From: an uncultured Oscillospiraceae bacterium
Lineage (GTDB): Bacteria > Bacillota > Clostridia > Oscillospirales > Oscillospiraceae
Direction of reading: 5' to 3'
Length of the DNA stretch: 64,000 bases
Assembly: GCA_947584295.1 (NCBI GenBank)
Contig: CANPWM010000002.1
Span: 7,937 to 71,936 of the forward strand
The notes beneath the pieces were generated by a model. That model did not search any database. It was not told where the DNA came from and worked only from the letters and a program-made list of their open reading frames with translations. How positions within the stretch are numbered: position 1 is the first letter of the stretch; every line of letters starts with the position of its first letter. The translations under genes were made by a program, and so were the position numbers. Positions 3,177 to 63,948 of the stretch are shown one piece after another.

Positions 3177-3269
3177 GGAGAAGTCGCGTAGCCCGGTCGA
3201 GCGCGCACGATTGGAAATCGTGTAGGGGTCAAAAGCTCCTCGAGGGTTCGAATCCCTCCTTCTCCGCCA
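3177..3269 (+). tRNA. tRNA-Ser (anticodon GGA), CCA encoded
   Basis: Acceptor GGAGAAG/CTTCTCC; anticodon stem CACGA/TCGTG with loop TTGGAAA (anticodon GGA); long variable arm; T arm GAGGG-TTCGAAT-CCCTC; discriminator G plus CCA. Confidence 0.9.
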
Positions 3270-3426: not shown

Positions 3427-3480
3427 TTTCAATCAGAAGGGGAACCCTGACGGTTCCCCTTCCCAACCCTTCCCTCCGAA
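3427..3480 (+). repeat. R1 palindromic repeat, copy 1
   Basis: GAAGGGGAACC-ctgac-GGTTCCCCTTC core plus the conserved tail CCAACCCTTCCCTCCGAA. Matches copies at 4298, 4348 and 24931 (reverse). Confidence 0.85.
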
Positions 3481-3576: not shown

Positions 3577-3882
3577 ATGGCAAAAACGGCAAATCTGTAC
3601 GCGAGGATCGAGCCTGAACTCAAGGAGCAGGCGGAGGAGATCCTTTTGACCCTCGGCATCCCCGCTTCCAACGCCATCACCATGTTTTACAGGCAGATCG
3701 TCCTTCAACGCGGACTGCCCTTTGACGTGAAGCTTCCGGCGAATGTCCCTGCGGATGTGAGCAAGCTCACAGAAACGGAGCTGGACGCAGAGCTTGAGAA
3801 GGGGTATGCCGATGTAAAGGCCGGAAAGACCCGTGACGCCGGGAGCGTCTTTGCGGATATCCGCAGGGACTATGGCATATGA
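3577..3882 (+). CDS. type II antitoxin, RelB/DinJ family
   Basis: N-terminal ribbon-helix-helix pattern ANLYARIEPELKEQAEEILLTLGIPASNAITMFYRQIVLQRGLPF. A 4-nt overlap links it to the downstream toxin gene. Confidence 0.85.
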   Translation: MAKTANLYARIEPELKEQAEEILLTLGIPASNAITMFYRQIVLQRGLPFDVKLPANVPADVSKLTETELDAELEKGYADVKAGKTRDAGSVFADIRRDYGI

Positions 3883-4202
3883 CGTACCGCGTGACGATCT
3901 CCGCCCAGGCTGACGCGGATCTTCGTGGGATATATGAGTATATCGCGTTCAAGCTTCGCTCCATGATCAACACCGTGGGGCAGCTTGAACGATTGGAGAA
4001 GGCCATCCGGGGGCTGGACAAAATGCCGGAGAGGTATGCTCTCTATGGATCGGGCAAATGGGCGAAGAGGGGACTTCGTAAAATGCCGGTGGACAACTAT
4101 CTCGTATTCTACATTCCGGATAACGAGACCCGAACCGTCAATGTCATCCGGGTCATGTACGGCGGGATGGATGTGAAACGGGAGTTGGAAAGCAACACGT
4201 AA
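3879..4202 (+). CDS. type II toxin, ParE/RelE superfamily
   Basis: 107 aa. YRVTISAQADADLRGIYEYI ... YLVFYIPDNETRTVNVIRVMYGGMD is the typical ParE-like layout. Start overlaps the antitoxin stop (ATGA). Confidence 0.85.
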   Translation: MTYRVTISAQADADLRGIYEYIAFKLRSMINTVGQLERLEKAIRGLDKMPERYALYGSGKWAKRGLRKMPVDNYLVFYIPDNETRTVNVIRVMYGGMDVKRELESNT

Positions 4203-4297
4203 GCACAACGAGAAACGCCCTATTGAAAAGTAGGATTTTTAACCACTTACTCCAAAAAATCCAATAGGGCGGGGATTTTTTGGTGGAGAAGGAGACA

Positions 4298-4343
4298 ATT
4301 TCAACCGGAAGGGGAACCCTGATGGTTCCCCTTCCAACCGCCG
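4298..4343 (+). repeat. R1 palindromic repeat, copy 2 (truncated tail)
   Basis: GGAAGGGGAACC-ctgat-GGTTCCCCTTCC, lacking the CCCTTCCYTCCG tail. Confidence 0.8.
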
Positions 4344-4347
4344 CACG

Positions 4348-4414
4348 GCGGCGGGTGATTGAATCGGAAGGGGAACCCTGACGGTTCCCCTTCCAAACCC
4401 TTCCTTCCGAACAT
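4348..4414 (+). repeat. R1 palindromic repeat, copy 3 (full length)
   Basis: GGCGGCGGGTGATTGAATCGGAAGGGGAACCCTGACGGTTCCCCTTCCAAACCCTTCCTTCCGAACA. Nearly identical to the reverse complement of 24931-24994. Confidence 0.85.
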
Positions 4415-4460
4415 ACGGAAGCCTGATTTATTACGCAAATGTTCTGTACGGGCCGGACGC

Positions 4461-4568
4461 GTCGTCGCGGAACCGGCTTCACCTCGCATCCCCGCAGGGC
4501 GGGAACACTCAGGCGCACGGTTCGCTCCTCCTTTCCCCGTCGGGCAACGGCCCGATGGGGCCCCCAAT
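4461..4568 (+). repeat. R2 structured repeat, copy a (inside an R3 hairpin loop)
   Basis: GTCGTCGCGG-GAACCG...CGGTTC-GCTCCTCCTTTCCCC-hairpin-GGGGCCCCCAAT. Flanked by GGGCCG / CGGCCC, the two arms of an R3 palindrome. Confidence 0.85.
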
Positions 4569-4899
4569 GCGGCCCGCCAAACGAATTACGAAAAAGCCAT
4601 CGTACAATCTTGTAGGGGCCGCCGTCCCCGGCGGCCCGCCGAATTTCCGGCGCATTGCGTATAACGCGCCCATGTATCAAATTCTTGGAATTCTTTCCTA
4701 AATGTCAGTAGAGGCGGGTTCAAAACCCGCCTGCCAAATTCCCGGAAATTTAATTTCATCGCCGTACGGGCCGGACACCCGGCCGGCCCGCCATTCGAAT
4801 GACAATTTCGCCCTCCCAAAAAGGTTGGGGCTACGCCGCGTATTGAAAAAATGTCGGGCCGCCTCTCTTGGCGGCCCCTACATTGGAAATTCGATTCTT

Positions 4900-11564: not shown

Positions 11565-11593
11565 ATTATACCATAAGCTATTTTTATTGTCAA
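11565..11593 (-). promoter_or_regulatory. near-consensus sigma-A promoter (copy D), antisense to the nucleotidyltransferase gene
   Basis: Minus strand reads AAAAAATAATTATTTTTTTGAAAAAAGTA-CTTGACA-17 bp-TGGTATAAT. The predicted TSS is about 33 nt beyond the stop codon at 11525, pointing into the gene. Confidence 0.6.
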
Positions 11594-11652
11594 GTACTTT
11601 TTTCAAAAAAATAATTATTTTTTAGCTTTATTTATTTTGCCCCATTTTTTAC

Positions 11653-11681: not shown

Positions 11682-11687
11682 CTCATC

Positions 11688-11838
<151 letters not shown>

Positions 11839-11852
11839 GGAGGTACAGAAAA

Positions 11853-12425
11853 ATGAACAACAAGCGTGTAAAAATGCTGGTGGAGGGCGCGATCATGGTG
11901 GCTCTGGCGGTGCTGCTGGACTACCTGGCGTTTTATCATCTGCCTGACGGCGGCTCTATCACCCTGAAGCTCCTGCCCATCGTGTTCTTCGCCGTGCGCT
12001 ACGGCTGCGGCTGGGGCGCTCTGGCGGGCTTTGTCTTTGGGGCCCTCAACTACATAAGCGGAAACGGCGTGTCCATCGACTGGACCACCATCATCTGCGA
12101 CTACTTCCTGGCCTTCACCCTTCTGGGCTTCGGCGCGGGCCTTTTCAAAAAGGTCAAGCTGGGCGGCGTCTGGGGCTCCCTGGTGGGCGGCCTTCTGATG
12201 TTCGCCTCCAGCTATCTGGTGGGCGTGTTCGTCTGGGCGCGGAACCTGTCGGCGGCGGACCCCTGGGACTTCCTGGGCATCACCTTCACCAACCCCTGGT
12301 TCTACTCCTTCATCTACAACATCACCTGGGCCGGCCCCTGCATCGTCCTGGCCGCCGTGGTGTTCGTCCTGTTCTATCAGATCAAGCCCGTGGCCAAGTA
12401 TCTGAATGGCACAGATTTAAAATAA
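11853..12425 (+). CDS. thiT: thiamine transporter ThiT (ECF S component)
   Basis: 190-aa multi-TM protein immediately downstream of the TPP riboswitch. GGAGG SD 8 nt upstream of ATG 11853; the longer ORF from 11790 would run through the riboswitch terminator. Confidence 0.85.
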   Translation: MNNKRVKMLVEGAIMVALAVLLDYLAFYHLPDGGSITLKLLPIVFFAVRYGCGWGALAGFVFGALNYISGNGVSIDWTTIICDYFLAFTLLGFGAGLFKKVKLGGVWGSLVGGLLMFASSYLVGVFVWARNLSAADPWDFLGITFTNPWFYSFIYNITWAGPCIVLAAVVFVLFYQIKPVAKYLNGTDLK

Positions 12426-17154: not shown

Positions 17155-17184
17155 GAAGTTACCTCCATTTCAATTTATAGAGGA

Positions 17185-17208
17185 GGGGCCGCCGCGGGCG
17201 GCGGCCCC
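17185..17208. repeat. R3-type GC palindrome in the tpiA-gpmI spacer
   Basis: GGGGCCGCCG-cggg-CGGCGGCCCC, the same arm sequence as the R3 unit at 4612-4640. Confidence 0.6.
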
Positions 17209-18009: not shown

Positions 18010-19293
18010 TTATTTGTCGAGTAAGCAGGCTACGCCGGGAAGCTCCTTGCCCTCGAGGAACTCAAGGGAGGCGCCGCCGCCGGTGGAGATGTGGGTGATC
18101 TTGTCGGCAAAGCCAAGCTGCTCGCAGGCCGCCGCGCTGTCGCCGCCGCCCACGATGGAGATGCAGTCGGACTCGGCCAGGGCCTTCGCCACGGCGATGG
18201 TACCGGCGGCCAGGGTGGGATTCTCAAAGACGCCCATGGGGCCGTTCCAGACGACGGTCTTGGCCTCCATGACGGCCTGGGCGAAGATCTCGCGGGTCTT
18301 TTCGCCGATGTCCAGGCCCATCTTGTCGGCGGGAATGGCGTCGGAGGCCACGGTCTCCACGGCCACGGGGCCGTCGATGGGGTCGGGGAAGGAGGCGGCC
18401 ACCACGGTGTCCACGGGCAGGAGCAGCTTGACGCCGCGCTCCTGGGCCTTGGCCATCATGTCCTTGCAGTAGTCCAGCTTGTCGGTGTCCAGAAGGCTGG
18501 TGCCGACGGAATAGCCCTTGGCCGCCATGAAGGTATAGGCCATGCCGCCGCCGATGATGAGCGTATCGACCTTCTCAAGAAGATTGGAGATGACATTGAG
18601 CTTATCGGAGACCTTGGCGCCGCCCAGAATGGCCACGAAGGGGCGGTCAGGATTGGCGAGGGCCTTGCCCATGACGCCCAGCTCCTTCTCGATGAGGAAG
18701 CCGGAGACGGCGGGCAGATAGGCGGCGACGCCGGCGGTGGAGGCGTGGGCGCGATGGACAGCGCCGAAGGCATCGGAGACATAGACGCCGTTCTCACCGG
18801 CCAGGGCGGCCAGCTTCTTTACAAATTCGGGGTCGTTCTTGGTCTCACCCTTCTCAAAACGGGTGTTCTGGAGGAGCATGATCTGGCCGCCCTTCAGCGC
18901 GGCGGCCTTGGCCTGGGCGTCGGGGCCGACAACGTCACCGGCCAGGATCACGTCCTGACCCAGAAGCTCGGCAAGGCGCTTGGCCACAGGCTCCATGCAC
19001 AGGGCCTCCAGGGATTTGCGCCACTTGGCCTCGGTCAGCTCCTCGGGGGCCTTGCCCTTCTCGGCCTGCTTCTTGGCCCACTTGTCAAAGCTGGGTTCGG
19101 GCTTGCCCAGGTGGCTGCAGGCGATGACGGCGCAGCCCTGCTCCAGCAGATACTTGATGGTGGGGACGGCGGCCACGATGCGCTTGTCGCTGGTGATGAC
19201 GCCGGCTTTCAGGGGAACGTTGAAGTCGCAGCGAAGGAGGACCTTCTTGCCTGCCAGGTCGATGTCACGGACCGATTTCTTGTTGTAGTTCAT
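18010..19293 (-). CDS. pgk: phosphoglycerate kinase
   Basis: 427 aa. [20 protein letters not shown]-like [24 protein letters not shown]. Carries an extra segment of about 25-30 residues after HLGKP. Confidence 0.95.
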
Positions 19294-19345
19294 GTCAATA
19301 CTCCAATCCTAAAAATTATTTTAAACCCATAAAGGGATACTGCGC

Positions 19346-19453
19346 GTCGTCCTCGCGCGAGCCGCTTTACCTCGCCCTCCCTGACGGTCGGGTTCAGGCG
19401 CAGGCTCGGCTCGTCCTCTCCCCACCGGGCAACGGCCCGGCGGGGGCCCCATT
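19346..19453 (+). repeat. R2 structured repeat, copy c
   Basis: GTCGTCCTCGCG-CGAGCCG...CGGCTCG-TCCTCTCCCC-ACCGGGCaacgGCCCGGCGGGGGCCCC, in the trmL-pgk spacer. Confidence 0.8.
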
Positions 19454-19476
19454 TTTGCGAACCACTTTACCCCCGG

Positions 19477-19968
19477 TCACCGGGCCATGCTGCCGGTGCC
19501 GGAAAGCTCCGGGAACCCCTGCTGGCGCAGGGCCTCGTAGCACAAAACGGCCACGGAATTGGCAAGGTTGAGGCTCCTGGCGTCCTCCCGCATGGGGATA
19601 CGGACGCACTTATCCCGGTAACGCTCCCGGAAAAACGCGGGCAGTCCCGCCGTCTCCTTGCCGAAAACCAGCCAGCACCCGTCCTGATAGGCGGCCTCGT
19701 GATAGGCCCTGGGGGCCTTGGTGGTGGCAAGCCACAGGTCGTCCCCGCCGTGCCGTTGGAGGAACTCGTCCAGGTTCTCATAGACCGTGATATCCACCAT
19801 GGGCCAGTAGTCCAGGCCCGCCCGCTTCACAGCCCTGTCGGAGATGTCGAAGCCCAGGGGCCGCACCAGATGCAGGCGCGAACGGGTGGCGGCGCAGGTG
19901 CGGGCGATGTTGCCGCAATTCTGGGGGATCTCCGGCTCCACCAGCACGATGTTGACCAATTGACTCAC
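19477..19968 (-). CDS. trmL: tRNA (cytidine/uridine-2'-O-)-methyltransferase TrmL (SpoU family)
   Basis: 163 aa. IVLVEPEIPQNCGNIARTC, LVFGKETAGLP, SLNLANSVAVLCYEALRQ. Confidence 0.85.
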   Translation of the reverse strand: MSQLVNIVLVEPEIPQNCGNIARTCAATRSRLHLVRPLGFDISDRAVKRAGLDYWPMVDITVYENLDEFLQRHGGDDLWLATTKAPRAYHEAAYQDGCWLVFGKETAGLPAFFRERYRDKCVRIPMREDARSLNLANSVAVLCYEALRQQGFPELSGTGSMAR

Positions 19969-20099
19969 CTCTTGCCATCGAACTTATTTTATAACTTCCC
20001 GCGGGAGTTTTCAATATAAATCGTTAAAAAACTCGCAAACTTTTTCACTTTTGGCCTTTTGGCGAAAGTAAGGCCGAAATCGGCGATTTGTTTTGGGAG

Positions 20100-20440
20100 G
20101 TTCCGCGCATATTTCACCGCTCCCGGCGGCCCACCCGGCAAATTTCGTATAACGCACCCGTAGGGGCGGCCGTCCCCGGCCGCCCGTCCCGGTTGATCTC
20201 CGGGCTGTCAATCATCGGGGGACGGGTCGCATTGGGGCCCCCATCGGGCCGCTGCCCGGTGGGGAGAGGAGGAGCGAACCTGGCGCGTGAGCGTTCCCGC
20301 CGCGCGGGGACGCGAGGTTAAGCCGGTTCCGCGACGACGCCGGCGACCCCTACGGGGTTGTACGGCACCTCTTCGGAAAAGCGACGACGCGGGGCAGCCG
20401 GTGTCCGGCACGTCCCGCGTCATTTGCGATATTGTCGTTA
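20100..20440. repeat. mosaic of GC-rich palindromic units (block Z; R3+R2)
   Basis: An intact R3 hairpin at 20160-20189 and an R3 hairpin split by R2 (arms 20217-20230 and 20339-20353). The linkers CGTATAACGC and CCGATGATTGAC are shared with block X. Confidence 0.8.
20231..20338 (-). repeat. R2 structured repeat, copy b (inside an R3 hairpin loop)
   Basis: Its reverse complement aligns along the full length of copy a. Flanked by GGGTCGC / GCGACCC arms. Confidence 0.85.
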
Positions 20441-20460
20441 TGCTCTCCAGGGCCGCGGGC

Positions 20461-21015
20461 TTACTCCTGCTTGCCGTTCAGCGCGTCAACGGCGGCGTCG
20501 AACTCACGCTTGGCCTCGCTGGCGGCCTCCTCGGCGGCGTTGGCGGCCTCCTGGGCGGTCTGCTCCACGGTATGCTCGATCTCGTCCACCACCTGCCCGG
20601 CGGGCGCGTCGGCGGGTTCGCCGGTGACCTCCGTCTCCGGCTTCTCTTGGGCGGAGAGGCTCTCGATCTCGGCCTGCTTGGCCTCGATGGACTCTAAGAC
20701 CGACTCGATAGCGGCGGCGGTCTCGGCGAAGTCGGGATCGGTATGACCGGCGTACTTCTCATAGTAGAGCTTGCCAAGCTCGGTGTACTTCTCCTTCAGG
20801 CCGCCGCGGGCGGCGGCGATCTCCGCGTTGAGCTTGGCCTTCTTGCCGGTGGTCTGGGCCTTTCCCGCCACGTCCTTGGCCGCGTCTGAGACCTTCCCGG
20901 CCACGTCGCGGGCGGTGTCTCCGGCCTTCCCGGCCACGTCCTTGGCCAGTCCCACGGCCTTGCCGGCGGCCTGGTTCAATTTTTCCTTCAGGTCATCAAA
21001 ATTAAAGCTTGCCAT
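20461..21015 (-). CDS. hypothetical protein with KDVAGKA repeats and an acidic C-terminal half
   Basis: Start set at MASFNFDDLKEKL, with a GGAGG SD 7 nt upstream. Starting the ORF at 21153 would overlap the lgt 3' end. No recognisable catalytic motif. Confidence 0.55.
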   Translation of the reverse strand: MASFNFDDLKEKLNQAAGKAVGLAKDVAGKAGDTARDVAGKVSDAAKDVAGKAQTTGKKAKLNAEIAAARGGLKEKYTELGKLYYEKYAGHTDPDFAETAAAIESVLESIEAKQAEIESLSAQEKPETEVTGEPADAPAGQVVDEIEHTVEQTAQEAANAAEEAASEAKREFDAAVDALNGKQE

Positions 21016-21136
21016 CAGTTTTACCTCCATTTGATTTTCTTGATTTGTTTTGAGTGTCAGCGTTCTGTTAAACGAGACGGCCCTGCGCGTTCTCAACAGC
21101 TCCCGCAGGGGTTCCAGCGCCTCGTCAAGCTCCTGT

Positions 21137-22156
21137 TCATTCATGGGCGTCACCGCTCCCGTCCCCGGAAGTCTCCTCCGGCGCCGCGCCGTCCTCCGCC
21201 GGGGCCTCCGGGGCCTCGTCCGCCTCCCGCTCCCCCGTCTCCGGGGCGGCAGGGGCGCTCTCCGATGCCGGGGCGCTCTCCGTATCTTCCGCCTCCGCGG
21301 CCGCGGCGGCCTTCTGGCGGTTTACGAACATCTTCTCCGGGTCCGGGCGGCGAATGAATCTATTATACAGCAAAAGGGCCGCAGATGCAAGGAAAAGAAT
21401 GAAGGACACCAGCTGGCTGACGCGGATACCCGTGTTGAAGAGGTAGAGGCTGTCGGTGCGCAGGCCCTCGATGAACATTCTCCCGAAGCCGTACCAGCAC
21501 AGATACCACAAAAACACCTGCCCGTCGTACCGGCGGTGTTTTTTGGAGAAAAAGTGCATCAGCGTGAAACCGATGAGGTTCCACAGGGACTCGTAGAGGA
21601 AGGTGGGGTGGACGGCGTAGGCGGTGCCGTCGGGGAGGGTCAGCACCATGCGGCAGAAGATGTCCGTCTGATAGCCGAAGGCCTCCCGGTTCATGAAGTT
21701 CCCCCACCGGCCCAGGGTCTGGCCGATGATAAAGCCGAAAAACACCATGTCCAAAAAGGCGGGAATGGACAGCTTCTTCCACACGCAGTAGATGACCAGG
21801 GCCAAAATCGCCCCGGCGATGACGCCGTACATCCCTATGCCCCCCTGCCAGATATACAGGACGGAGATGGGGTCGTCGGCGAAAAGATCCCAGTGGAACA
21901 GGCAGAAATAGATCCGCGCGCCGATGATGGCCAGGGGGACGCCCAGAATGATCACGTCAAAGACGTTGTCCGGCGTCAGGCCGAACTCCTTGGAGCGCCT
22001 GGCGCAGTACAGCACCGCCAGCAAAAAGCCCGTGGCGATGATGATGCCGTACCAGTGGACGGTCAGCGGGCCGATATGGATCACGGGCGAGGGATCAATG
22101 GACCAGTCCCCCAGCATGGGGAAGGAGATGGAAGCTTCCGGGTAGGCTGTTTTCAT
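21137..22156 (-). CDS. lgt: prolipoprotein diacylglyceryl transferase
   Basis: HWYGIIIATG..., GARIYF, GRWGNFMNREAFG signature. Has an Ala/Pro/Glu-rich C-terminal extension of about 70 aa. Confidence 0.9.
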   Translation of the reverse strand: MKTAYPEASISFPMLGDWSIDPSPVIHIGPLTVHWYGIIIATGFLLAVLYCARRSKEFGLTPDNVFDVIILGVPLAIIGARIYFCLFHWDLFADDPISVLYIWQGGIGMYGVIAGAILALVIYCVWKKLSIPAFLDMVFFGFIIGQTLGRWGNFMNREAFGYQTDIFCRMVLTLPDGTAYAVHPTFLYESLWNLIGFTLMHFFSKKHRRYDGQVFLWYLCWYGFGRMFIEGLRTDSLYLFNTGIRVSQLVSFILFLASAALLLYNRFIRRPDPEKMFVNRQKAAAAAEAEDTESAPASESAPAAPETGEREADEAPEAPAEDGAAPEETSGDGSGDAHE

Positions 22157-24779: not shown

Positions 24780-25345
24780 ACGGAAAAAACAATAGATTTG
24801 CGGAAATTCTCCGCCGCCTCCGGCGGCGGAGAATACAACCTAATGGAAAGGTTTTCCCGAAATGCGGCGGGCCGGCCGGGTGTCCGGCCCGTACAGAACA
24901 TTATTCGGATAAAAAACAGTTCCCGTATGAGCGGAGGGAAGGGTTTGGAAGGGGAACCGTCAGGGTTCCCCTTCTGATTCAATCACCCGCCGCCATACGA
25001 AACATCTCCCCCCATATCTTTTCGCTTCCCCCAACGTAAAATTTATCCGTACGGGCCGGACACCCGGCCGGCCCGCCTATCGAATTACAAAAAAACCATC
25101 GTATAACGCCGTACGGGCCGCCGCCCACGGCGGCCCATGGCACCATCGAATTTCGCAACAACCCATTATTATGCTTCCGTAGGGGTCGCCCTCCCGGGCG
25201 ACCCGTCCACCGATGATTGACCACCCGGAGGTTCACCGGGACGGGCCGCCCGGGAGGGTGGCCCCTACGGCGGTTAAATTAAATTTCCCATAATTCGTTT
25301 GTCGGGGCGGCCGTCCCCGGCCGCCCCGCCCGCCGAACCTCCGGG
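24780..25345. repeat. mosaic of GC-rich palindromic units (block X; R1+R3, no R2)
   Basis: R3 hairpins at about 24866-24894 (reverse), 25049-25077, 25111-25136, 25179-25208, 25241-25268 (reverse) and 25301-25330, plus R1 at 24931-24994. Collinear with parts of blocks Y and Z. Confidence 0.8.
24931..24994 (-). repeat. R1 palindromic repeat, copy 4
   Basis: The reverse complement reads GGCGGCGGGTGATTGAATCAGAAGGGGAACCCTGACGGTTCCCCTTCCAAACCCTTCCCTCCGC. Confidence 0.85.
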
Positions 25346-25400
25346 CTGTATGTTCTCAAACCTTTCCCTCTCCCCCGGCATATACTGTCCTGAGAACAAC

Positions 25401-27318: not shown

Positions 27319-27352
27319 AAAGCGGATATCCGAAAGGAATATCCGCTTTGCC
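27319..27352 (+). terminator. hairpin terminator between asnB and trkH
   Basis: GCGGATATCC-gaaa-GGAATATCCGC followed by TTTGCCGTTTGTTT. A second GC hairpin without a T-run lies at 27276-27305. Confidence 0.6.
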
Positions 27353-27393
27353 GTTTGTTTACAAAAAATTAATTATTTTTATAATATTTTTAC

Positions 27394-27422
27394 TTGACAT
27401 ATGGGGGAGCGTATGGTATAAT
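27394..27422 (+). promoter_or_regulatory. near-consensus sigma-A promoter (copy A), antisense to trkH
   Basis: ACAAAAAATTAATTATTTTTATAATATTTTTA-CTTGACA-17 bp-TGGTATAAT. The predicted TSS is about 26 nt outside the trkH stop (27455), pointing into trkH. 39/41 identity of UP+-35 with copy B. Confidence 0.6.
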
Positions 27423-27454
27423 CCAAAGCGTAGGGGGAAGTGCGCCTATCGGGG

Positions 27455-31455: not shown

Positions 31456-33654
31456 ATGAAGATCATCAAGCGAAACGGCGCGGAGATGGATTTTGACATC
31501 AAGAAGATCGAGAACGCCATCAGCAAGGCCAATATGTCCGTGGAGGAGTCGTCCCGCATGACGCCCCTCCAGATCCGGCGCATATCCGAGTCCGTGGCCC
31601 TGGACTGCGAAAACATGGGCCGAAGCCCCTCCGTGGAGGAGATACAGGATCTGGTGGAGAAGCAGATCATGGCCCACGGGGCCTTTGAGGTGGCCAAGAA
31701 CTACATCACCTACCGCTACACCAGGAGCCTGGTGCGCCAGAGCAACACCACCGACGAGAAGATCCTCTCCCTCATCGAGTGCTGCAACGAGGAGGCCAAG
31801 CAGGAGAACTCCAACAAGAACCCCGTGGTCAACTCCACCCAGCGCGACTACATGGCCGGTGAGGTCAGCCGCGACCTCTCCGAGCGCATCCTTCTCCCCC
31901 GGGACATCGTGGAGGCCCACGAGGCCGGGATCATTCACTTCCACGACACCGACTATTACGCTCAGCATATGCACAACTGCGACCTGGTGAACCTGGAGGA
32001 TATGCTCCAGAACGGCACCGTCATCACCGGCACCCTTATCGAGCGTCCCCACAGCTTCTCCACCGCCTGCAACATCGCCACGCAGATCATCGCCCAGGTG
32101 GCCTCCAACCAGTACGGCGGCCAGTCCATCTCCCTTACGCATCTGGCCCCCTTTGTGGACGTGAGCCGCCGGAAGATCCGCAAGGTGGTGGAAAACGAGC
32201 TGGTGACTCTGGGCGTCAACCCCGAAGAGGATAAGATCCAGAAGATCGTGGAGGACAGGCTCCTGGAGGAGATCCGCCGGGGCGTCCAGACTATCCAGTA
32301 CCAGGTGGTCACCCTGCTCACCACCAACGGGCAGGCCCCCTTCGTCACCGTGTTCATGTATCTGGGCGAGGCCCGCTCTGAGCGGGAGCGGGAGGATCTG
32401 GCCCTGATCATCAGGGAGGTCCTGCTCCAGCGCTACGAGGGCACCAAGAACGAGGACGGCGTATGGGTCACCCCCGCCTTCCCCAAGCTCATCTACGTTC
32501 TGGAGGAGGACAACATCACCGAGGGATCCCGGTATTGGGAGCTTACAAAGCTGGCGGCCAAATGCACCGCCCGCCGCATGGTCCCCGACTACATCAGCGA
32601 GAAGAAGATGCTGGAGCTTAAAGGCGACGTCTACACCTGCATGGGCTGCCGCTCCTTCCTGACCCCCGACCGCTTCACCGACGCGGGCGTGGGCAACATC
32701 GCCAACGCCGGAAACTACGAGCCGGGCAAGCACAAATACTACGGCCGTTTCAACCAGGGCGTGGTCACCATCAATCTCCCCGACGTGGCCCTCTCCTCCG
32801 GCGGCAATATGGACAAGTTCTGGAGCATCTTTGAGGAGCGCCTGGAGCTGTGCCACCGGGCCCTGCGGTGCCGTCACGAGCGGCTTCTGGGCACCCCCTC
32901 CGACGTGGCCCCCATTCTCTGGCAGCACGGCGCCCTGGCCCGCCTGGAAAAAGGCGAACCCATCGACAGGCTCCTCTACGGCGGCTACTCCACTATCTCC
33001 TTGGGCTACGCCGGTCTTTATGAGTGTGTCAAGTACATGACCGGCAGATCCCACACCGACCCGGAGGCCACCCCCTTCGCCCTGGCGGTGATGCAGAAGA
33101 TGAACGACAAGTGCAAGGAGTGGAAGACGGCGGAGAACATCGACTACTCCCTCTACGGCACGCCCCTGGAGTCCACCACCTACAAGTTCGCCAAGTGCCT
33201 CCAGCGCCGCTTCGGCATCATCGAGGGCATCACCGACAAGGGCTACATCACCAACTCCTACCACGTCCACGTCACCGAGCAGATCGACGCTTTCACCAAG
33301 CTCAAATTCGAGTCCGAGTTCCAGGCCCTCTCCCCCGGCGGCGCCATCAGCTACGTGGAGGTGCCGGATATGCAGAACAACCTGGAGGCCGTTTTGCAGG
33401 TGATGCGGTTCATCTACGACAACATCATCTACGCCGAGCTGAACACCAAGTCCGACTACTGCCAGTGCTGCGGCTGGGACGGCGAGATCGACATCGTGGA
33501 GGAGGACGGCAAGCTCATCTGGAAATGCCCCAAGTGCGGCAACACCGACCAGAACAAGATGAACGTGGCCCGGCGCACCTGCGGCTACATCGGCACCCAG
33601 TTCTGGAACCAGGGCCGGACCCAGGAGATCAGAGACCGGGTACTCCACCTTTAA
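31456..33654 (+). CDS. nrdD: anaerobic ribonucleoside-triphosphate reductase
   Basis: 732 aa. N-terminal ATP-cone (MKIIKRNGAEMDFDIKKI), C-terminal Zn ribbon CQCCGW...CPKCG and glycyl radical motif RTCGYIG. Confidence 0.95.
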   Translation: MKIIKRNGAEMDFDIKKIENAISKANMSVEESSRMTPLQIRRISESVALDCENMGRSPSVEEIQDLVEKQIMAHGAFEVAKNYITYRYTRSLVRQSNTTDEKILSLIECCNEEAKQENSNKNPVVNSTQRDYMAGEVSRDLSERILLPRDIVEAHEAGIIHFHDTDYYAQHMHNCDLVNLEDMLQNGTVITGTLIERPHSFSTACNIATQIIAQVASNQYGGQSISLTHLAPFVDVSRRKIRKVVENELVTLGVNPEEDKIQKIVEDRLLEEIRRGVQTIQYQVVTLLTTNGQAPFVTVFMYLGEARSEREREDLALIIREVLLQRYEGTKNEDGVWVTPAFPKLIYVLEEDNITEGSRYWELTKLAAKCTARRMVPDYISEKKMLELKGDVYTCMGCRSFLTPDRFTDAGVGNIANAGNYEPGKHKYYGRFNQGVVTINLPDVALSSGGNMDKFWSIFEERLELCHRALRCRHERLLGTPSDVAPILWQHGALARLEKGEPIDRLLYGGYSTISLGYAGLYECVKYMTGRSHTDPEATPFALAVMQKMNDKCKEWKTAENIDYSLYGTPLESTTYKFAKCLQRRFGIIEGITDKGYITNSYHVHVTEQIDAFTKLKFESEFQALSPGGAISYVEVPDMQNNLEAVLQVMRFIYDNIIYAELNTKSDYCQCCGWDGEIDIVEEDGKLIWKCPKCGNTDQNKMNVARRTCGYIGTQFWNQGRTQEIRDRVLHL

Positions 33655-33913
33655 TACTAATATCTAATTAAAATAAGACATTCGCGCCGGTCTTTTTTCG
33701 TCCTCGCACGAGCCGCTTAACCTCGGGCTGCAAGTATTCGCCCTCAGGCGCTGGCTCGGCTCGGCCTCTCCCCATCGGGCAGCGGCCCGATGGGGGCCCC
33801 GGATACTGCGTCAGCCGCCTTGGGAATACATACAGTATTCCCTGCGGTGTCTTCCTTGCCTGACACGAAAAATCCTCGCCGCTCGGTGTCTCCTTTTAAA
33901 TAGATATTAGTAT
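33654..33913. mobile_element. MITE-like 260-bp insertion between nrdD and nrdG
   Basis: Terminal inverted repeats ATACTAATATCTAATTAAAA (33654-33673) and TTTTAAATAGATATTAGTAT (33894-33913) match 19/20. The interior holds an R2 copy and a GGGAATAC-atac-AGTATTCCC hairpin; no ORF. Confidence 0.65.
33699..33800 (+). repeat. R2 structured repeat, copy d
   Basis: CGTCCTCGCA-CGAGCCG...CGGCTCG-GCCTCTCCCC-ATCGGGCagcgGCCCGATGGGGGCCCC. Confidence 0.8.
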
Positions 33914-33922
33914 CAAACTAAC

Positions 33923-33956: not shown

Positions 33957-34061
33957 AAAAACAAAATCGAAGCCCAGCGCAGCGGGTTCGATTTTGAGAG
34001 GAGGAATGAACACAGCGCCTGAGCCGTCACGCCCGCGCGGCGGCGAGGCAAAGCGTGTTCA

Positions 34062-34604
34062 ATGACGACGATGAATTATGGTGAGATCAAAAACTGCGAC
34101 ATTGCCAACGGTCAGGGGGTGCGGGTGACGCTCTTTGTCTCCGGCTGTACCAACCACTGCCAGGGGTGCTTCCAGCCCCAGACCTGGGATTTTGACTTCG
34201 GCAGGCCCTTCACCCGGGAGGCGGAGGATCAGCTGATGGAGATGCTGGCCCCCGGCTACATCAACGGCCTGACGCTCCTGGGCGGCGAGCCTATGGAGCC
34301 GTCCAATCAGCGGGCGCTGCTGCCCTTTGTCCGCCGCGTCCGGGAAACCTACCCGGACAAGACCGTGTGGTGCTACTCCGGCTTCACCTTAGAGGAGCTT
34401 CGCACCGACGGCTCCCACCCCCGGTGCGAGGCGACGGACGAGCTGCTCTCCCTTATCGACGTCCTGGTGGACGGCAAGTTCGTCCTGGCCCAGAAGGACA
34501 TCTCCCTGCGCTTTCGCGGCTCCCGGAACCAGCGGATCATCGCCCTGCCCAAGACGCTGAAAACAGGCCGGATCTGCCTGTGGGACGACCATCTGGGCAA
34601 ATAA
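34062..34604 (+). CDS. nrdG: anaerobic ribonucleoside-triphosphate reductase activating protein
   Basis: DIANGQGVRVTLFVSGCTNHCQGCFQPQTW radical SAM cluster motif; 180 aa. Confidence 0.9.
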   Translation: MTTMNYGEIKNCDIANGQGVRVTLFVSGCTNHCQGCFQPQTWDFDFGRPFTREAEDQLMEMLAPGYINGLTLLGGEPMEPSNQRALLPFVRRVRETYPDKTVWCYSGFTLEELRTDGSHPRCEATDELLSLIDVLVDGKFVLAQKDISLRFRGSRNQRIIALPKTLKTGRICLWDDHLGK

Positions 34605-54958: not shown

Positions 54959-55912
54959 TTGAAAAAAGCATTTTCCCTGGCGCTTCTCCTGTTTATGTGC
55001 CTGTGCCTTACCGTCCCCGCCCTGGGGCTGACCCAGGGGGAGAGCTTCTACGTCACCGACGAGACGGGTTCCCTGAGCCGGGACACCGTCGATGAGGTGG
55101 CGCGGCTCAACGAGGCGCTGGAGGAGAACTATCAGGCCCACGTCGTGGTGGCCTTTGTGGACTATTTCGGCGACGTGTACGCCGACGAGTACGCCGTGAG
55201 CCTTTATAACGAGTGGAGCCTCTCCCCCCGGGGCATGCTGCTGGTGGTCTCCCCCAAGGAGGGCCGGGGCGGCATGACGGTGGGTTCGGAGATCACGGAC
55301 GCCTTCACCGCCGACGACATCAACAGCTACCTTGACCGATATTTCTGGGACGACTTTGACAAGGGGAAATATGACAAGGCCGTGACAAAGCTGGTGGAGA
55401 AGCTCTCCGGGTGGTATGAGGACTACTACGGCCCCGTCTCCGGCGGCAGTCAGGCCCAAACCGGCGGAAGCTCCGCCTCCGGGGCGCTGGCGGGCCTGGG
55501 CCTTCTGGGCGTTATCCTGGGCTTTATCACCAGGAACCTTTTCATCATTCTGATCTTCGTGGCCATCATCGTGCTGATCGTCCTGGCGGACAGGCGGCGG
55601 TACCGGGGCTATTACAGATCCATCGGAATGCCGATCCCCCGGTATTACCCCTGGTATATGTTCACCGCCCGCCCCTACCGGGCCTACCGGCGGCCCAGGC
55701 CCGCGCGGCCTCCCACGCCGCCCCCCGGCGGCGGGTACAGGCCCCCCGCAAGACCGGCCTCCCGCCCCGCGCCCAGGCCCTCGCGTCCCTCCCGCCCCAG
55801 CGGCGGCGGACACTCCGGCGGCAGCTTCGGGGGCCGCGGCGGCAGCTCCGGCGGCTTCGGCGGACACTCCGGCGGCGGCCGCAGCGGCGGCAGCTTCGGC
55901 GGCAGACGGTAA
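54959..55912 (+). CDS. TPM domain-containing protein with C-terminal TM and Gly/Arg/Pro-rich tail
   Basis: TTG start (GAGGTG SD 8 nt upstream) gives the signal peptide MKKAFSLALLLFMCLCL. TPM-like YVTDETGSLS...VVVAFVDY...GMLLVVS. Tail GGGHSGGSFGGRGGSSGGFGG. Confidence 0.7.
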   Translation: MKKAFSLALLLFMCLCLTVPALGLTQGESFYVTDETGSLSRDTVDEVARLNEALEENYQAHVVVAFVDYFGDVYADEYAVSLYNEWSLSPRGMLLVVSPKEGRGGMTVGSEITDAFTADDINSYLDRYFWDDFDKGKYDKAVTKLVEKLSGWYEDYYGPVSGGSQAQTGGSSASGALAGLGLLGVILGFITRNLFIILIFVAIIVLIVLADRRRYRGYYRSIGMPIPRYYPWYMFTARPYRAYRRPRPARPPTPPPGGGYRPPARPASRPAPRPSRPSRPSGGGHSGGSFGGRGGSSGGFGGHSGGGRSGGSFGGRR

Positions 55913-55940
55913 AAAATTGAGGAAAAAGATAACAAAATCG

Positions 55941-55976
55941 AGAGGACAGGAAGAACCGTTCCTGTCCTCTTTTTTA
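55941..55976 (+). terminator. intrinsic terminator after the TPM gene
   Basis: GAGGACAGG-aagaaccgtt-CCTGTCCTC followed by TTTTTT. Confidence 0.8.
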
Positions 55977-56021
55977 ATGTCAAATGTCAAGTTTAATGTC
56001 GGGGGCCGAACCGGCGCCGTC

Positions 56022-59907: not shown

Positions 59908-60014
59908 TTTGGGGCCCCCGCGCGATCATGATCGCGTGGGGAAAGGAGGAGCGAAGTCAGCGAGTGAGCCGCGCCGTGAGCGGCACGGGGAGCTATCGCG
60001 ACTTCCGCGACGAC
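59908..60014 (-). repeat. R2 structured repeat, copy e (overlaps the acn 3' end)
   Basis: The reverse complement reads GTCGTCGCGG-AAGTC...GACTT-CGCTCCTCCTTTCCCC-ACGCGATCatGATCGCGCGGGGGCCCCAAAAT. The first 22 nt encode the last 7 codons and the stop of acn. Confidence 0.8.
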
Positions 60015-62227
60015 GCATACCAGTTCATGAGGCAGCCCTCAAGAATAATTTCACGTTCTTTTTGCGTAAGCTCCGGGAGCTTCAGGGTGATGTCCGTCAC
60101 CCGGCCGCCGGAGAGGGCCTTGGCGGGGATCTCCCGCGCGCCGGACTCCACGGCCTTTTTCACGCCGGGGACGTAGATAAGGTCGCCGGGTTCAAAGGGG
60201 AAATCGGCGTCCCCGTCGATGTTGAAGGGCAGCATGCCCCAGTTGATGCAGTTGGAGCGGTAACGCTTGGTGGCGTACTCATAGCAGATGTTGGCCCCGC
60301 CGCCCAGCACCCGCTGGCAGGAGGCCGCCTGCTCCCGGGCGGAGCCGTCGCCGGGGCGGTTGGCGAAGATGGCGGAGGCCAGGGCGGTGTTCTCCACGTC
60401 CGTGACGCCCAGCTTCTCGAAGGCGGCCAGCAGCGCCCCGTCCGGGGCCTTGCTCCCCCGCTCCCGAATGGCGTTGGCCCGGCCCACATAGGCCGGATCC
60501 CGGCGGGAGAGGGCGAAGGTGGCCAGCTTCAGGGGGTTGGAGCGGTAGCTGGAGGTGTCGCCGGAGGGGATCAGCTCGTCGGTGGTGGTCACCGGGTCCC
60601 GGAGGACGCTGGCCAGCTCCAGGACGATATTCTCCTTCAGGGCCGGAATGGCGGGCCATTCGGTGATGTTGGGGCCAAGGCGCAGCTCCTCCTCCGGGTG
60701 GGGGTCGCCAAAGCCGTTATAGACGCGTTTATCGTAGGCGCTCCTGTCGTACCGGCGCTCTACCGGGGCGGGGGGCGTGTAGTCGATCTCGTCCGCGCCG
60801 GTGAGTACGCCGCCGTTTCGCGCCGTGGCGGCGATGGAGCGGGCGTCCATCAGGGCCACGCAGGAGAGCTGTCCCTCCGCCGGTTTCGACCCCTCCCGGT
60901 TGGGGAAGTTGCGGGTGCAGTGGCGGATAGAGAGGCCGCTGTTCACCGGCACGTCCCCCGCGCCGAAGCAGGGGCCGCAGAAGCAGGGCTTGAACACCGC
61001 CCCCATGGCGGTGAGGCGCTGGGTCACGCCGTTGTTCATCAGCTCCATGGCCACGGGCAGGCTGGGCGGGTAGACCGTCAGGCCGAAATATCCCGCGCCG
61101 ATGCCGCCGGAGGCCAGAATGGCCGCGGCCTCGGCGATGTTGTCGTACATACCGCCGGAGCATCCGGCGATAACGCCCTGATCCACGTAGAGCCGGCCGT
61201 TTTTGACCTTGCTCACCAGATCCAGCTTCACCTTGCCCTTGAACTTCCCCTGGGCGGACTTCTCCGTTTCCCGGAGGATATCGGTGAGGTTGGCCTTCAG
61301 CTCCCGAATGGTGTACGCCTCGCTGGGGTGGAAGGGCAGGGCGATCATAGGCTCCACCGTGGAGAGGTCGATCTCCACGCAGGCGTCGTAATAGGCCCCC
61401 TCCCCCGGCTCCAGCTTCTTATAGTCCCCGGGCCGCCCGTGGACGCGGTAATATTCCTCCACCCTGCTGTCCGTCTGCCAGATGGAGCTTAAACAGGCCG
61501 TCTCGGTGGTCATCACGTCGATGCCGATGCGGAAATCCATGGGCAGGCTCTCGAGGCCGGGGCCGGCGAACTCCAGGACGGAGTTGAGGACGAAATTGTT
61601 CTTGTACGTGGCGCCGCACAGGGCGATGGCCACGTCCTGGGGGCCTACGCCCCTTCGGGGCGCGCCGGTGAGATACACCAGCACCGTCCGGGGATAGGCC
61701 ACGTCGTAGGTGGCCTCCAAAAGCTGCTTGACGATCTCCGGGCCGCCCTCGCCCACGCCCATGGTACCCAGCGCGCCGTAGCGGGTGTGGCTGTCGGAGC
61801 CTAAGATCATTTTGCCGCACCCGGCCAGCTCCTCCCGGGCGTACTGGTGGATAACGGCGAAGGAGGGGGGTACGAAAATACCGCCGTATTTCCGGGCCGC
61901 CGAAAGGCCGAAGGCGTGGTCGTCGGCGTTGATGGTGCCGCCTACGGCGCACAGGCTGTTGTGGCAGTTGGTCATGACGTAGGGCACCGGGAACCGCTGA
62001 AGGCCGCTGCCCTTGGCCGTCTGAAGGATACCCACATAGGTGATGTCGTGGGAGATGAGACTGTCGAAGGCGATACGCAGGTTTTTCCCGTCCGTCCCTT
62101 TGTCATGGGCGGACAAAATGGCGTGGGCGATAGTCTTTTTCCGCCCCGCCTCCGGGTCCTGCCCGGGCGCTTCAAAGACGGGCCTGCCGCCCAGATAATA
62201 GGTTCCCTTGTCGTGTAATGTGACCAT
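59993..62227 (-). CDS. acn: aconitate hydratase (monomeric Fe-S hydro-lyase)
   Basis: 744 aa. GSDSHT, CGPCFG and NREGS-type motifs. The C-terminal 7 residues (ASSRKSR) are read from repeat sequence. Confidence 0.9.
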   Translation of the reverse strand: MVTLHDKGTYYLGGRPVFEAPGQDPEAGRKKTIAHAILSAHDKGTDGKNLRIAFDSLISHDITYVGILQTAKGSGLQRFPVPYVMTNCHNSLCAVGGTINADDHAFGLSAARKYGGIFVPPSFAVIHQYAREELAGCGKMILGSDSHTRYGALGTMGVGEGGPEIVKQLLEATYDVAYPRTVLVYLTGAPRRGVGPQDVAIALCGATYKNNFVLNSVLEFAGPGLESLPMDFRIGIDVMTTETACLSSIWQTDSRVEEYYRVHGRPGDYKKLEPGEGAYYDACVEIDLSTVEPMIALPFHPSEAYTIRELKANLTDILRETEKSAQGKFKGKVKLDLVSKVKNGRLYVDQGVIAGCSGGMYDNIAEAAAILASGGIGAGYFGLTVYPPSLPVAMELMNNGVTQRLTAMGAVFKPCFCGPCFGAGDVPVNSGLSIRHCTRNFPNREGSKPAEGQLSCVALMDARSIAATARNGGVLTGADEIDYTPPAPVERRYDRSAYDKRVYNGFGDPHPEEELRLGPNITEWPAIPALKENIVLELASVLRDPVTTTDELIPSGDTSSYRSNPLKLATFALSRRDPAYVGRANAIRERGSKAPDGALLAAFEKLGVTDVENTALASAIFANRPGDGSAREQAASCQRVLGGGANICYEYATKRYRSNCINWGMLPFNIDGDADFPFEPGDLIYVPGVKKAVESGAREIPAKALSGGRVTDITLKLPELTQKEREIILEGCLMNWYASSRKSR

Positions 62228-63823: not shown

Positions 63824-63873
63824 CAGTTGACCAGAGAGGCCCGAAAAACGGGCTTCCCTCCTACGCAGTTTGG

Positions 63874-63902
63874 ATTATACCACAAGGGTGCTTATTTGTC
63901 AA
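63874..63902 (-). promoter_or_regulatory. near-consensus sigma-A promoter (copy B), antisense to citrate synthase
   Basis: Minus strand reads CACAAAAAATTAATTATTTTTATTATATTTTTA-CTTGACA-17 bp-TGGTATAAT-CCAAACTGCGTAGGAGGGAAG. The predicted TSS is about 44 nt beyond the gltA stop, pointing into gltA. Confidence 0.6.
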
Positions 63903-63948
63903 GTAAAAATATAATAAAAATAATTAATTTTTTGTGAACAACGGGCGA

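Follow-up and report, generated by a model that had tools for sequence, protein, structure and literature searches.

A structured repeat of about 100-108 nt, here termed R2, occurs six times in the window, a 64 kb stretch of housekeeping DNA of a sporulating Firmicute, an uncultured Oscillospiraceae bacterium with a genome of 63% G+C. R2 is a new, previously undescribed family of interspersed structured repeats of gut Oscillospiraceae, and in several respects it also departs from the repeats of this kind described in other bacteria. At a probability that we put at roughly 55%, R2 is a non-autonomous mobile module of an Oscillospiraceae clade, free of open reading frames (ORFs), which spreads via a folded intermediate and integrates at unpaired or broken DNA.

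A scan for an exact pattern, over one genome per prokaryotic species, gave at least 111 stretches carrying R2-like sequence (loci, named L0xx or L1xx), and a covariance model built from 75 copies identified 112 copies in a census of the window and 99 of the loci (0.8 Mb in total). At least 18 species bins of uncultured Oscillospiraceae metagenome-assembled genomes (MAGs) were represented among the first 80 loci, with almost all matches listed stemming from one rabbit-gut MAG set; the few pattern matches in other phyla were not confirmed by the covariance model and are chance. Extrapolated from the six copies in 64 kb, a genome must contain tens to hundreds of R2 units. R2 letters are given here on the pyrimidine-rich strand, as in the initial annotation of the window, and the complement is referred to as the purine-rich strand.

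R2 copies in the window

The six copies, named a to f, are distributed as follows.

4459-4568 (+): copy a, covariance-model match 4461-4565, 90.9 bits
19346-19453 (+): copy b, 99 bits, between trmL and pgk, both on the minus strand
20231-20340 (-): copy c, 87.2 bits, nested in a GTAG-headed hairpin resembling repetitive extragenic palindromic (REP) sequences
33698-33800 (+): copy d, 104.8 bits, internal module of a miniature inverted-repeat transposable element (MITE)
59908-60016 (-): copy e, 92.6 bits, between the aconitase and isocitrate dehydrogenase genes
33957-34071 (-): copy f, 59.9 bits, its purine-rich strand being the nrdG mRNA leader

Copies a to e, which the initial annotation had located correctly, can be aligned over ~105 nt with 79% mean column identity and score 87-105 bits with the covariance model, while the sixth, diverged copy f was recovered by the model (33957-34069 on the minus strand, E=1e-12). 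The core motif TCANNCGCN7GCTCNNCCTNTCCCC, derived from copies a to e, occurs five times in the window versus 0.18 expected. The ends are conserved as (T/G)C-GTCGTCGC … GGGGNCCCC, and both these and the CU-rich tract agree with the earlier description, except that conservation at the 5' end continues 1-2 nt further out (C at -1 in 77/79 copies, T at -2 in 52/79); these two bases behave as part of R2. The compensatory changes reported for the long-range helix P1 are also real, although the copy labels of two of its versions had been swapped: P1 is GAACCG/CGGTTC in the copies at 4461 and 20231, GAGCC/GGCTC in those at 19346 and 33699, and GAAGTC/GACTTC in that at 59908. Copy f has GAACAC/GTGTTC, with the closing GC/GC pair now AT/AT, and its 3' hairpin P2 is an AT-based stem. 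A role of R2 as a small ORF or leader peptide was ruled out by 1-nt insertions and deletions between copies, and the ATG of copy f is ACG in L126.

Some copies are compound. L015 (3294-3774) holds a tandem array of four 121-nt units with 97% identity, and L010 (3662-3862), L033, L036, L039, L040 and L041 are listed with it for arrays and nested-piece forms. The inner unit of two-unit arrays is without the GTCGTCGC end, the 3' half of R2 is partly duplicated in L010, L017, L080, L095 and L098, and some copies have an extra 61-nt piece nested in the inner loop (the 161-nt form). In addition, 22 quartets of P1 and P2 types show all four combinations, meaning that helical modules have been reshuffled among copies, which indicates frequent exchange between copies at conserved segments.

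A covarying fold on the purine-rich strand

RNAalifold and the covariance model agree on a fold made up of the long-range helix P1, the 3' hairpin P2 and an inner hairpin whose length varies (short, 120-nt and 161-nt forms). Among 107 distinct copies, 96.6% of paired cells are standard pairs, versus 76.1% after shuffling of partners (none of 500 shuffles attained 96.6%) and 36-46% when partners were slid by 1-3 columns. Cells in which both partners are changed and pairing is kept number 513 versus 150 expected, and 19 of the 27 pairs vary on both sides. Compensatory covariation, proposed by the initial annotation from five copies, is therefore statistically supported over many.

Several features of these copies differ between the two strands. 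The recurrent mismatch previously noted in P2 was confirmed, and on the pyrimidine-rich strand this position is A.C in 51 copies, A-T in 38, G-C in 11 and G.T in one; it is therefore a G·U (or G·T) wobble on the complement. Similarly, the commonest apex of the inner hairpin reads G(CUUG)C in 26 copies on the complement versus two on the other strand. The invariant GTCGTCGC end and GCTCCTCC tract are joined by one covarying pair, column 4 with column 149, which is G-C in 83 copies and C-G in 13 and lies between invariant YY/YY positions that correspond to GA/AG on the complement. There, GGAGGAGC stands opposite GCGACGAC, with G-C at every third position and tandem G·A/A·G between, and all eight G·A mismatch positions are 91-99% conserved; the -1 C and -2 T prolong this zipper pattern in most copies. 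The complement also folds 4-10 kcal/mol better, and its minimum-energy fold contains exactly the isolated G-C pairs. Wobble counts in the main helices gave no decision between the strands, being scarce on both (2314 Watson-Crick cells as against 12 of G·U and 29 of A·C).

From the recurrent mismatch in P2, together with the CUUG apices and the G·A zipper, we infer that the purine-rich strand is the one that folds. On the same footing, conservation and the one covarying pair suggest that the CU-rich tract would be the partner strand of the GGAGGAGC/GCGACGAC zipper and not a free anti-Shine-Dalgarno sequence. The strand specificity suspected earlier is thus present only as a structural asymmetry, and it favours the opposite strand.

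R2 within hairpin repeats and a MITE

R2 is found inside other repeats, which are themselves also found without it. The relevant features are listed below.

4446-4458 (+): left arm GTACGGGCCGGAC of the REP-like hairpin around copy a
4569-4578 (+): right arm GCGGCCCGCC of the same hairpin; the flank that follows, AAACGAATTACGAAAAAGCCATCGTA, matches that after 25077
25049-25077 (+): best uninterrupted paralogue of the copy-a hairpin, GTACGGGCCGGACACCCGGCCGGCCCGCC, with both flanks homologous
24866-24894 (-): uninterrupted hairpin cited in the initial annotation, with a left-flank mosaic in common with 4342-4458
4612-4638, 17182-17208, 20160-20186, 25111-25137, 25179-25205, 25301-25327 and ~59120 (-): REP-like palindromes, GTA(G/C)GGG(C/T)CGCC-N6-GGCG(G/A)CCC
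33655-33912 (+): MITE with copy d, 258 bp, with terminal inverted repeats (TIRs) TACTAATATCTAATTAAAA and TTTTAAATAGATATTAGTA
33655-33673 and 33894-33912: the 19-bp, AT-rich TIRs of the MITE
L004, L034, L049, L074, L088, L090, L104 and L106: loci of the Y hairpin family
L005, L025, L027, L045, L063, L088 and L099: loci of the Z hairpin family

The initial annotation had presented copy a as a filled site matched by an empty one. The nesting and the uninterrupted paralogues are real, a third uninterrupted version being present at 4764-4792 (+), and alignment confirms the left flank common to 24866-24894 (-) and the copy-a site, with 25049-25077 the better match as it shares both flanks. The comparison is not a clean one, however: ACGC-R2-AATG plus a G stands where the empty hairpin has its 8-nt loop ACACCCGG and the first base of the 3' arm, so that 9 nt have been exchanged and not merely interrupted. 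Copy c is likewise nested, between the arms GGGTCGC (20224-20230) and GCGACCC (20343-20349), and an empty version of its hairpin, GTAGGGGTCGCCCTCCCGGGCGACCC, lies at 25179-25205. Overall, 55 REP-like palindromes with GTAG or GTAC heads were found empty in the loci and the window, and those around copies a and c are filled. The GTAG head is characteristic of REPs linked to REP-associated tyrosine transposases (RAYTs). The REP-like family often clusters with other repeats, as at 4290-4830, 20140-20360 and 24860-25350, and no RAYT gene was seen alongside it.

Two further hairpin families, abundant in related genomes, were also seen in both states. The Y family (CAGAGGGGGG…CCCCCTCTG) has a loop of 11 nt when empty (CAGAGGGGGG-ATTTCGATTTC-CCCCCTCTG) and of 111 nt when filled with R2, while the loop of the Z family (GGGACGGTTCTTT…AAGAACCGTCCC) is 21-34 nt when empty and 111-126 nt when filled. 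A fourth host, with X arms GCAAGTGTGC…GCACACTTGC, was seen only filled. Flanking inverted repeats of at least 6 bp occur at 28% of R2 copies versus 8% in a control in which left and right flanks were mismatched between copies, so that the earlier association of R2 with hairpin loops is borne out by an enrichment as well as by the three families. R2 occurs in either orientation inside one host family, and the junction bases (GC on one side, AAT or ATT on the other) go with R2 and not with the host. Composites of R2 with REP-like, Y and Z hairpins recur in several species, and R2 flanks fall into at least six unrelated classes with no conserved core.

Copy d lies within the MITE, which is flanked by TAA at 33652-33654 (the nrdD stop codon) and TCA at 33913-33915. 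In 13 of 15 other copies of this MITE, TNA 3-bp direct repeats are identical on both sides; such a duplication recalls some IS5-family groups. The flanks of the MITE are unrelated from copy to copy, and no autonomous partner was seen. In other genomes it measures 159 bp without R2 and ~258 bp with it, the difference being exactly the R2 block. Each filled and empty pair compared (REP-like hairpin, MITE, nrdG leader and pgk spacer) shows replaced target bases, with losses of 5-20 nt at R2 insertions.

Gain and loss at matching sites

Presence and absence of R2 at orthologous spacers, which the initial annotation had called for, were seen for copy b at the strain level and for copies c, d and f at the species level. 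Three contigs encode a Pgk identical to that of the window; copy b is present in two and missing in the third (L113, TrmL 99.4% identical), where a 46-nt TAGAG-rich stretch replaces R2 and ~28 nt of its flank. This R2-less trmL-pgk allele (L113 ~756-852 versus window 19294-19476) contains low-complexity TAGAG/TAGTG-rich filler. At this spot another species, L083 (Pgk 96%), has an R2 from a separate subfamily in which every helix is different, giving the site three alleles (none, short form and long form). Copy c is missing from the orthologous spacer of L083, and the adjacent 165 nt align well.

The nrdD-nrdG spacer gives a similar picture. In two species with NrdG 88% and 83% identical (L122 and L124), this spacer is 55 nt long and consists of a hairpin, then GTGAGGGAA as the Shine-Dalgarno sequence, then ATG. 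A species with NrdG 90% identical (L126) has copy f and not the MITE, and the window has both; the MITE is thus missing from the orthologous spacers of L126, L122 and L124, and copy f from those of L122 and L124. In contrast to these losses or gains, copy e is retained at the aconitase 3' end in L063 (aconitase 83% identical), where two inner-hairpin base pairs have changed on both sides and the remainder of the spacer cannot be aligned. Around copies a and e, look-ups returned only strains with identical spacing, which is uninformative on gain and loss (four near-identical strains for copy a), and exact-protein look-ups for TrmL, RelE, Icd and NrdD returned no other contigs. The mixture of presence, absence and retention means that R2 is neither an ancient fixed spacer nor uniformly young.

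Ends, target and orientation

R2 has no terminal inverted repeats, GTCGTCGC and GGGGNCCCC not being inverted repeats of each other. Direct repeats at its borders were not above the mismatched-flank control (0.15 versus 0.11 for k=4; 0.04 versus 0.04 for k=5), and there is no conserved target motif beside R2, the flank positions outside the element being near-random. R2 is sense to flanking genes in 24 cases and antisense in 21 (p=0.77). Orientation to replication was judged with flanking gene direction as the sole proxy available on MAG contigs, which gives the same 24 co-oriented versus 21 anti-oriented copies. Spacers between convergent genes hold 26 copies and those between divergent genes nine (p=0.006); all p-values are nominal, as R2 copies share descent and are not phylogenetically independent. 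No conserved promoter was found beside R2, and a T-run follows P2 in only ~7/83 copies, with unrelated flanks.

No transposase or integrase was detected by Pfam among 42 ORFs of the window, consistent with the initial annotation; the remaining window ORFs considered were pgk, relB, relE, aconitase and icd (Pfam families of identical or near-identical strain-contig products) and trmL, nrdD and nrdG (identified by their sequence). When the 580 ORFs from the 111 loci were clustered all against all, only housekeeping families emerged. A crude screen for Y1/HUH candidates and REP-flanked ORFs found none, either in the window or across 0.9 Mb of related loci, and no insertion sequence (IS) with R2-like ends was seen as a partner in the loci screened.

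How R2 may spread

In the reading that we favour, the fold would be selected when R2 is copied, as a single-stranded DNA or RNA intermediate, and not where a copy sits. Selection is placed at the copying step because the fold is strand-specific yet shows no bias relative to transcription, and an RNA function in situ seems less likely. A trans-acting enzyme would handle the intermediate, which would integrate at unpaired or broken DNA such as hairpin tips and gene ends, leaving small target deletions and no target duplication; homologous exchange between copies would then homogenise and shuffle them. The preference for hairpin tips and gene ends, the lack of duplications and the small losses together suggest integration into unpaired or broken DNA, and we infer that this process is unlike canonical DDE, HUH or IS110 chemistry. 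The proposal of the initial annotation that R2 is mobile, non-autonomous and prone to hairpin loops is in this respect supported, while its suggested class and strand are not.

A number of observations weigh against this reading. No mobilising enzyme was identified, with none in the window and none recurrent beside R2 in the 111 loci. No insertion is young enough to have an exact empty site; as target bases are replaced in every comparison, part of the spread could be due to recombination or to repair-mediated capture. The strand assignment draws on few asymmetric features, and because G·U is nearly absent from the main helices on both strands, RNA and DNA intermediates are indistinguishable. 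Copy e is kept in two species with intact helices and could have a function in situ. Lastly, the matches listed come almost wholly from the single rabbit-gut MAG set.

A bolder version of the same idea, which we put forward only tentatively, is that R2 represents a new class of mobile element, a ~105-nt module without ORF, TIRs or target duplications. It would be copied through a folded purine-rich single strand, with a (GGA)n/(GAC)n zipper and two variable helices, and would integrate at the unpaired tips of extruded hairpins and at gene ends in a manner distinct from DDE, HUH and IS110 transposition. A retro- or repair-coupled route is conceivable for such an element, and its GGAGG beside a loop-out helix could act as a portable split ribosome-binding site, as apparently for nrdG.

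Effects on host genes and a possible host RNA function

Two copies have altered neighbouring genes. The 3' end of the aconitase ORF (59993-62227, minus strand) extends 21 nt into copy e (59993-60016), so that R2 supplies its six C-terminal residues (…SSRKSR*) and its stop codon, and the same is true in L063. Copy f stands in place of the native Shine-Dalgarno region of nrdG, whose start is at 34062 or 34071. Species without copy f have GTGAGGGAA 4-5 nt before the nrdG ATG, whereas in both species with it the sole GGAGG is R2-borne and lies ~75 nt upstream of the start. The foot of P1 on its 3' side carries a start codon, which is AUG in the window and GUG in L126, and the partner strand of P1 compensates for it, with GC/GC changed to AU/AU or AC/GU. 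If P1 were looped out, ~4-5 nt are predicted to separate the Shine-Dalgarno sequence from the nrdG start.

Judged from sequence, the nrdG leader with copy f therefore looks like a putative split ribosome-binding site. In phage T4 gene 38, a hairpin brings a distant Shine-Dalgarno sequence next to the start codon, and looping-out of P1 would have a similar effect here. Unlike in a simple split site, however, the same bases of the nrdG leader are also predicted to pair together, which would occlude them. The arrangement applies to 2-3 of the 112 copies. Three copies abut a gene start, one of them in L038 where the gene is flush with the R2 end, and with so few a general role of R2 as a portable ribosome-binding site was ruled out.

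These effects raise the alternative that R2 is a host-selected RNA module carried by other repeats, acting on the purine-rich strand as a structured leader that sequesters and presents the SD-like (Shine-Dalgarno-like) GGAGG for translation control or mRNA stabilisation, or on the other strand as an anti-Shine-Dalgarno RNA. The G·U wobble, CUUG tetraloops and tandem G·A pairs of the purine-rich strand are RNA-like, copy e has been kept across species with compensatory changes, and copy f has replaced the nrdG Shine-Dalgarno region in two species with its start codon accommodated in P1; a second gene begins flush with R2 in L038. We nevertheless consider the alternative unlikely, as R2 shows no orientation preference to flanking genes, most copies lie in convergent or 3' regions and only three at a gene start, no promoter or terminator is conserved among the unrelated flanks, G·U is near absent from the main helices, and R2 is polymorphic between near-identical strains. 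Two narrower candidates were rejected on similar grounds: an independent anti-Shine-Dalgarno small RNA gene on the pyrimidine-rich strand (no conserved promoter, few T-runs and no orientation bias) and a cis-regulatory leader, riboswitch or small RNA gene (no fixed position or orientation, 24:21, and mostly convergent spacers).

R2 as a passenger or as an IS200/IS605 derivative

R2 could also be immobile itself, having been captured a few times long ago in the MITE and the hairpin repeats and then multiplied by transposition of these carriers and gene conversion, for example when breaks at hairpin tips are repaired from an R2-bearing paralogue. The R2-bearing MITE clearly moves as a unit (TIRs, TNA duplications and unrelated flanks), composites of R2 with each of the three hairpin families occur in several species, modules have recombined among copies, and loops at filled sites are replaced and not interrupted. 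Against this, the at least six unrelated carrier contexts and the solo copies b, e and f would each require the independent entry of a precisely bounded block, both R2 orientations are found in one carrier type, and the trmL-pgk site has three alleles. We consider a purely passenger existence quite unlikely and read R2 instead as a module that is itself mobile.

The initial annotation had likened R2 to a palindrome-associated transposable element (PATE), that is, a deletion derivative of IS200/IS605 moved as single-stranded DNA by a Y1 TnpA or RAYT elsewhere in the genome. R2 resembles PATEs in being without ORFs, TIRs or target duplications and in having subterminal structure with a conserved asymmetric mismatch (in P2), and these genomes are rich in GTAG- or GTAC-headed REP-like palindromes in which R2 is often nested. 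REP palindromes of other bacteria are associated with RAYTs (PMC2817692, PMC3333891). However, the two ends of IS200/IS605 elements carry similar hairpins, whereas those of R2 are unrelated (the 11-bp hairpin P2 versus a ~65-nt multi-helix domain of zipper, P1 and inner hairpin), and PATEs have a conserved target, whereas no tetra- or pentanucleotide is conserved beside R2. The helices of R2 vary while its non-Watson-Crick segments are conserved, the opposite of one hairpin read by TnpA; as the stems covary even within one genome, one protein could not read them by sequence. Furthermore, there is no strand bias by flanking gene direction (24 versus 21), 5-20 nt of target are lost, which is not left by HUH or DDE transposition, and the crude screen gave no HUH-like ORF in the window or the 0.9 Mb of loci. 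Given no TIRs, target duplication or conserved target, no bias relative to gene direction and no transposase nearby, the PATE label is unsupported and the reading is improbable.

Comparison with known repeats and elements

Like R2, the ERIC (or IRU), BOX (boxA-B-C), RUP and Correia (or NEMIS) repeats are ~100-150 nt long and intergenic. They number tens to hundreds of copies, lie in either orientation, are predicted to fold strongly and come in modular or nested variants, and they spread in ways long unexplained or dependent on a transposase in trans. Correia and RUP repeats have TIRs and target duplications, and ERIC is one long imperfect palindrome. In contrast, R2 has neither TIRs nor target duplications, is not a long palindrome, folds into several helices with conserved non-Watson-Crick segments and is not known to share sequence with them. 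By the usual definition of a MITE (TIRs and a target duplication of fixed length), R2 itself falls outside and its carrier at 33655-33912 falls within.

R2 shares with REP, BIME and REPIN sequences that it is short, abundant, extragenic and hairpin-forming, lies mostly at gene 3' ends and is clustered in mosaics (PMC1525189, PMC2817692, PMC3333891, PMC3116915). It differs in being 3-4 times longer, in not being a simple palindrome of 20-40 nt with a GTAG-type head, which the hairpins enclosing copies a and c do have, and in being the guest and not the host. REP hairpins are landing sites for IS1397 and ISKpn1, and for the IS110-family elements ISPpu9, ISPpu10 and IS621 (PMC1525189, PMC2817692, PMC3333891, PMC3116915). 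Such invaders of REPs are complete insertion sequences that encode a transposase and insert at a fixed point, whereas R2 has no ORF and several unrelated hairpin families as hosts. The closest documented parallel in behaviour is ssr9, a module of ISPpu9 from Pseudomonas putida. This small non-coding RNA gene is excised as a minicircle of its own, lands in REPs and is described as a selfish passenger using the IS110 transposase in trans (PMC12288879). Both ssr9 and R2 are ORF-less structured modules without TIRs, occurring solo or attached to mobile units, and in REPs. However, ssr9 has A'/B' boxes in common with its insertion sequence, one highly conserved target and an AG core (PMC12288879), whereas R2 is without such boxes, target or core.

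R2 had no match in the collections searched. Rfam 15 returned none at the gathering threshold for the window, nor at E<=10 for 19250-20450, which includes two copies; the check had been proposed in the initial annotation. Likewise, no match was obtained by BLAST of plasmid and phage collections or by a pattern search of 2.9 M viral contigs. R2 was not found in the first 200 supplementary files of a human-microbiome structured-RNA catalogue, and full-text literature searches by organism, repeat type and sequence strings gave nothing relevant.

Significance

Short interspersed repeats account for a sizeable share of intergenic sequence in these uncultured gut Clostridia, and R2 is an unusually well-supported structure-constrained member that is yet without the hallmarks of known transposition chemistries. 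Whatever copies it could turn out to be a new route of mobilisation, or an existing enzyme put to a new use, such as a RAYT, an IS110-type recombinase or a reverse transcriptase. Host genes are remodelled by R2, as at the aconitase C-terminus and in the ribosome-binding region of nrdG (anaerobic dNTP synthesis), although such side effects are occasional, and the nrdG leader is a natural test case for initiation across a looped-out structure. The L113 contig stops at the point corresponding to the start of copy c in the window, suggesting that R2 breaks short-read assemblies, and the R2 covariance model would aid annotation and strain typing of Oscillospiraceae MAGs.

Other features of the window

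A second hairpin repeat, R1 (GGAAGGGGAACCCTGACGGTTCCCCTTCC), occurs at 3435-3462, 4307-4334, 4366-4393 and 24947-24974, and lies within a larger mosaic unit of ~75 nt (4342-4418 versus 24923-24999, 92% identity). A 90-nt tRNA with a long variable arm (3177-3266, plus strand, 54.4 bits; anticodon loop UUGGAAA) is probably tRNA-Ser(GGA), and a relB/relE-type toxin-antitoxin pair lies just 3' of it at 3577-4202. A thiamine pyrophosphate (TPP) riboswitch at 11683-11790 (plus strand, 58.8 bits, above the Rfam gathering score) lies directly 5' of a thiamine transporter gene (11790-12425; Pfam Thia_YuaJ). AT-rich stretches of ~60-80 nt are repeated at 27350-27427 and 63869-63946 (inverted, 83%) and at 11565-11623 and 63874-63932 (direct, 73%); they carry TTGTCAAGTA/TTGACA-like boxes upstream of unrelated genes and may be a shared promoter or operator module or a further repeat family. 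In-frame repeats are present in two ORFs: a tandem repeat with a 33-nt period at 20857-20967 in the 20461-21153 ORF, which has no Pfam match, and a GGC-rich repeat at 55804-55909 in the 55684-55983 ORF.

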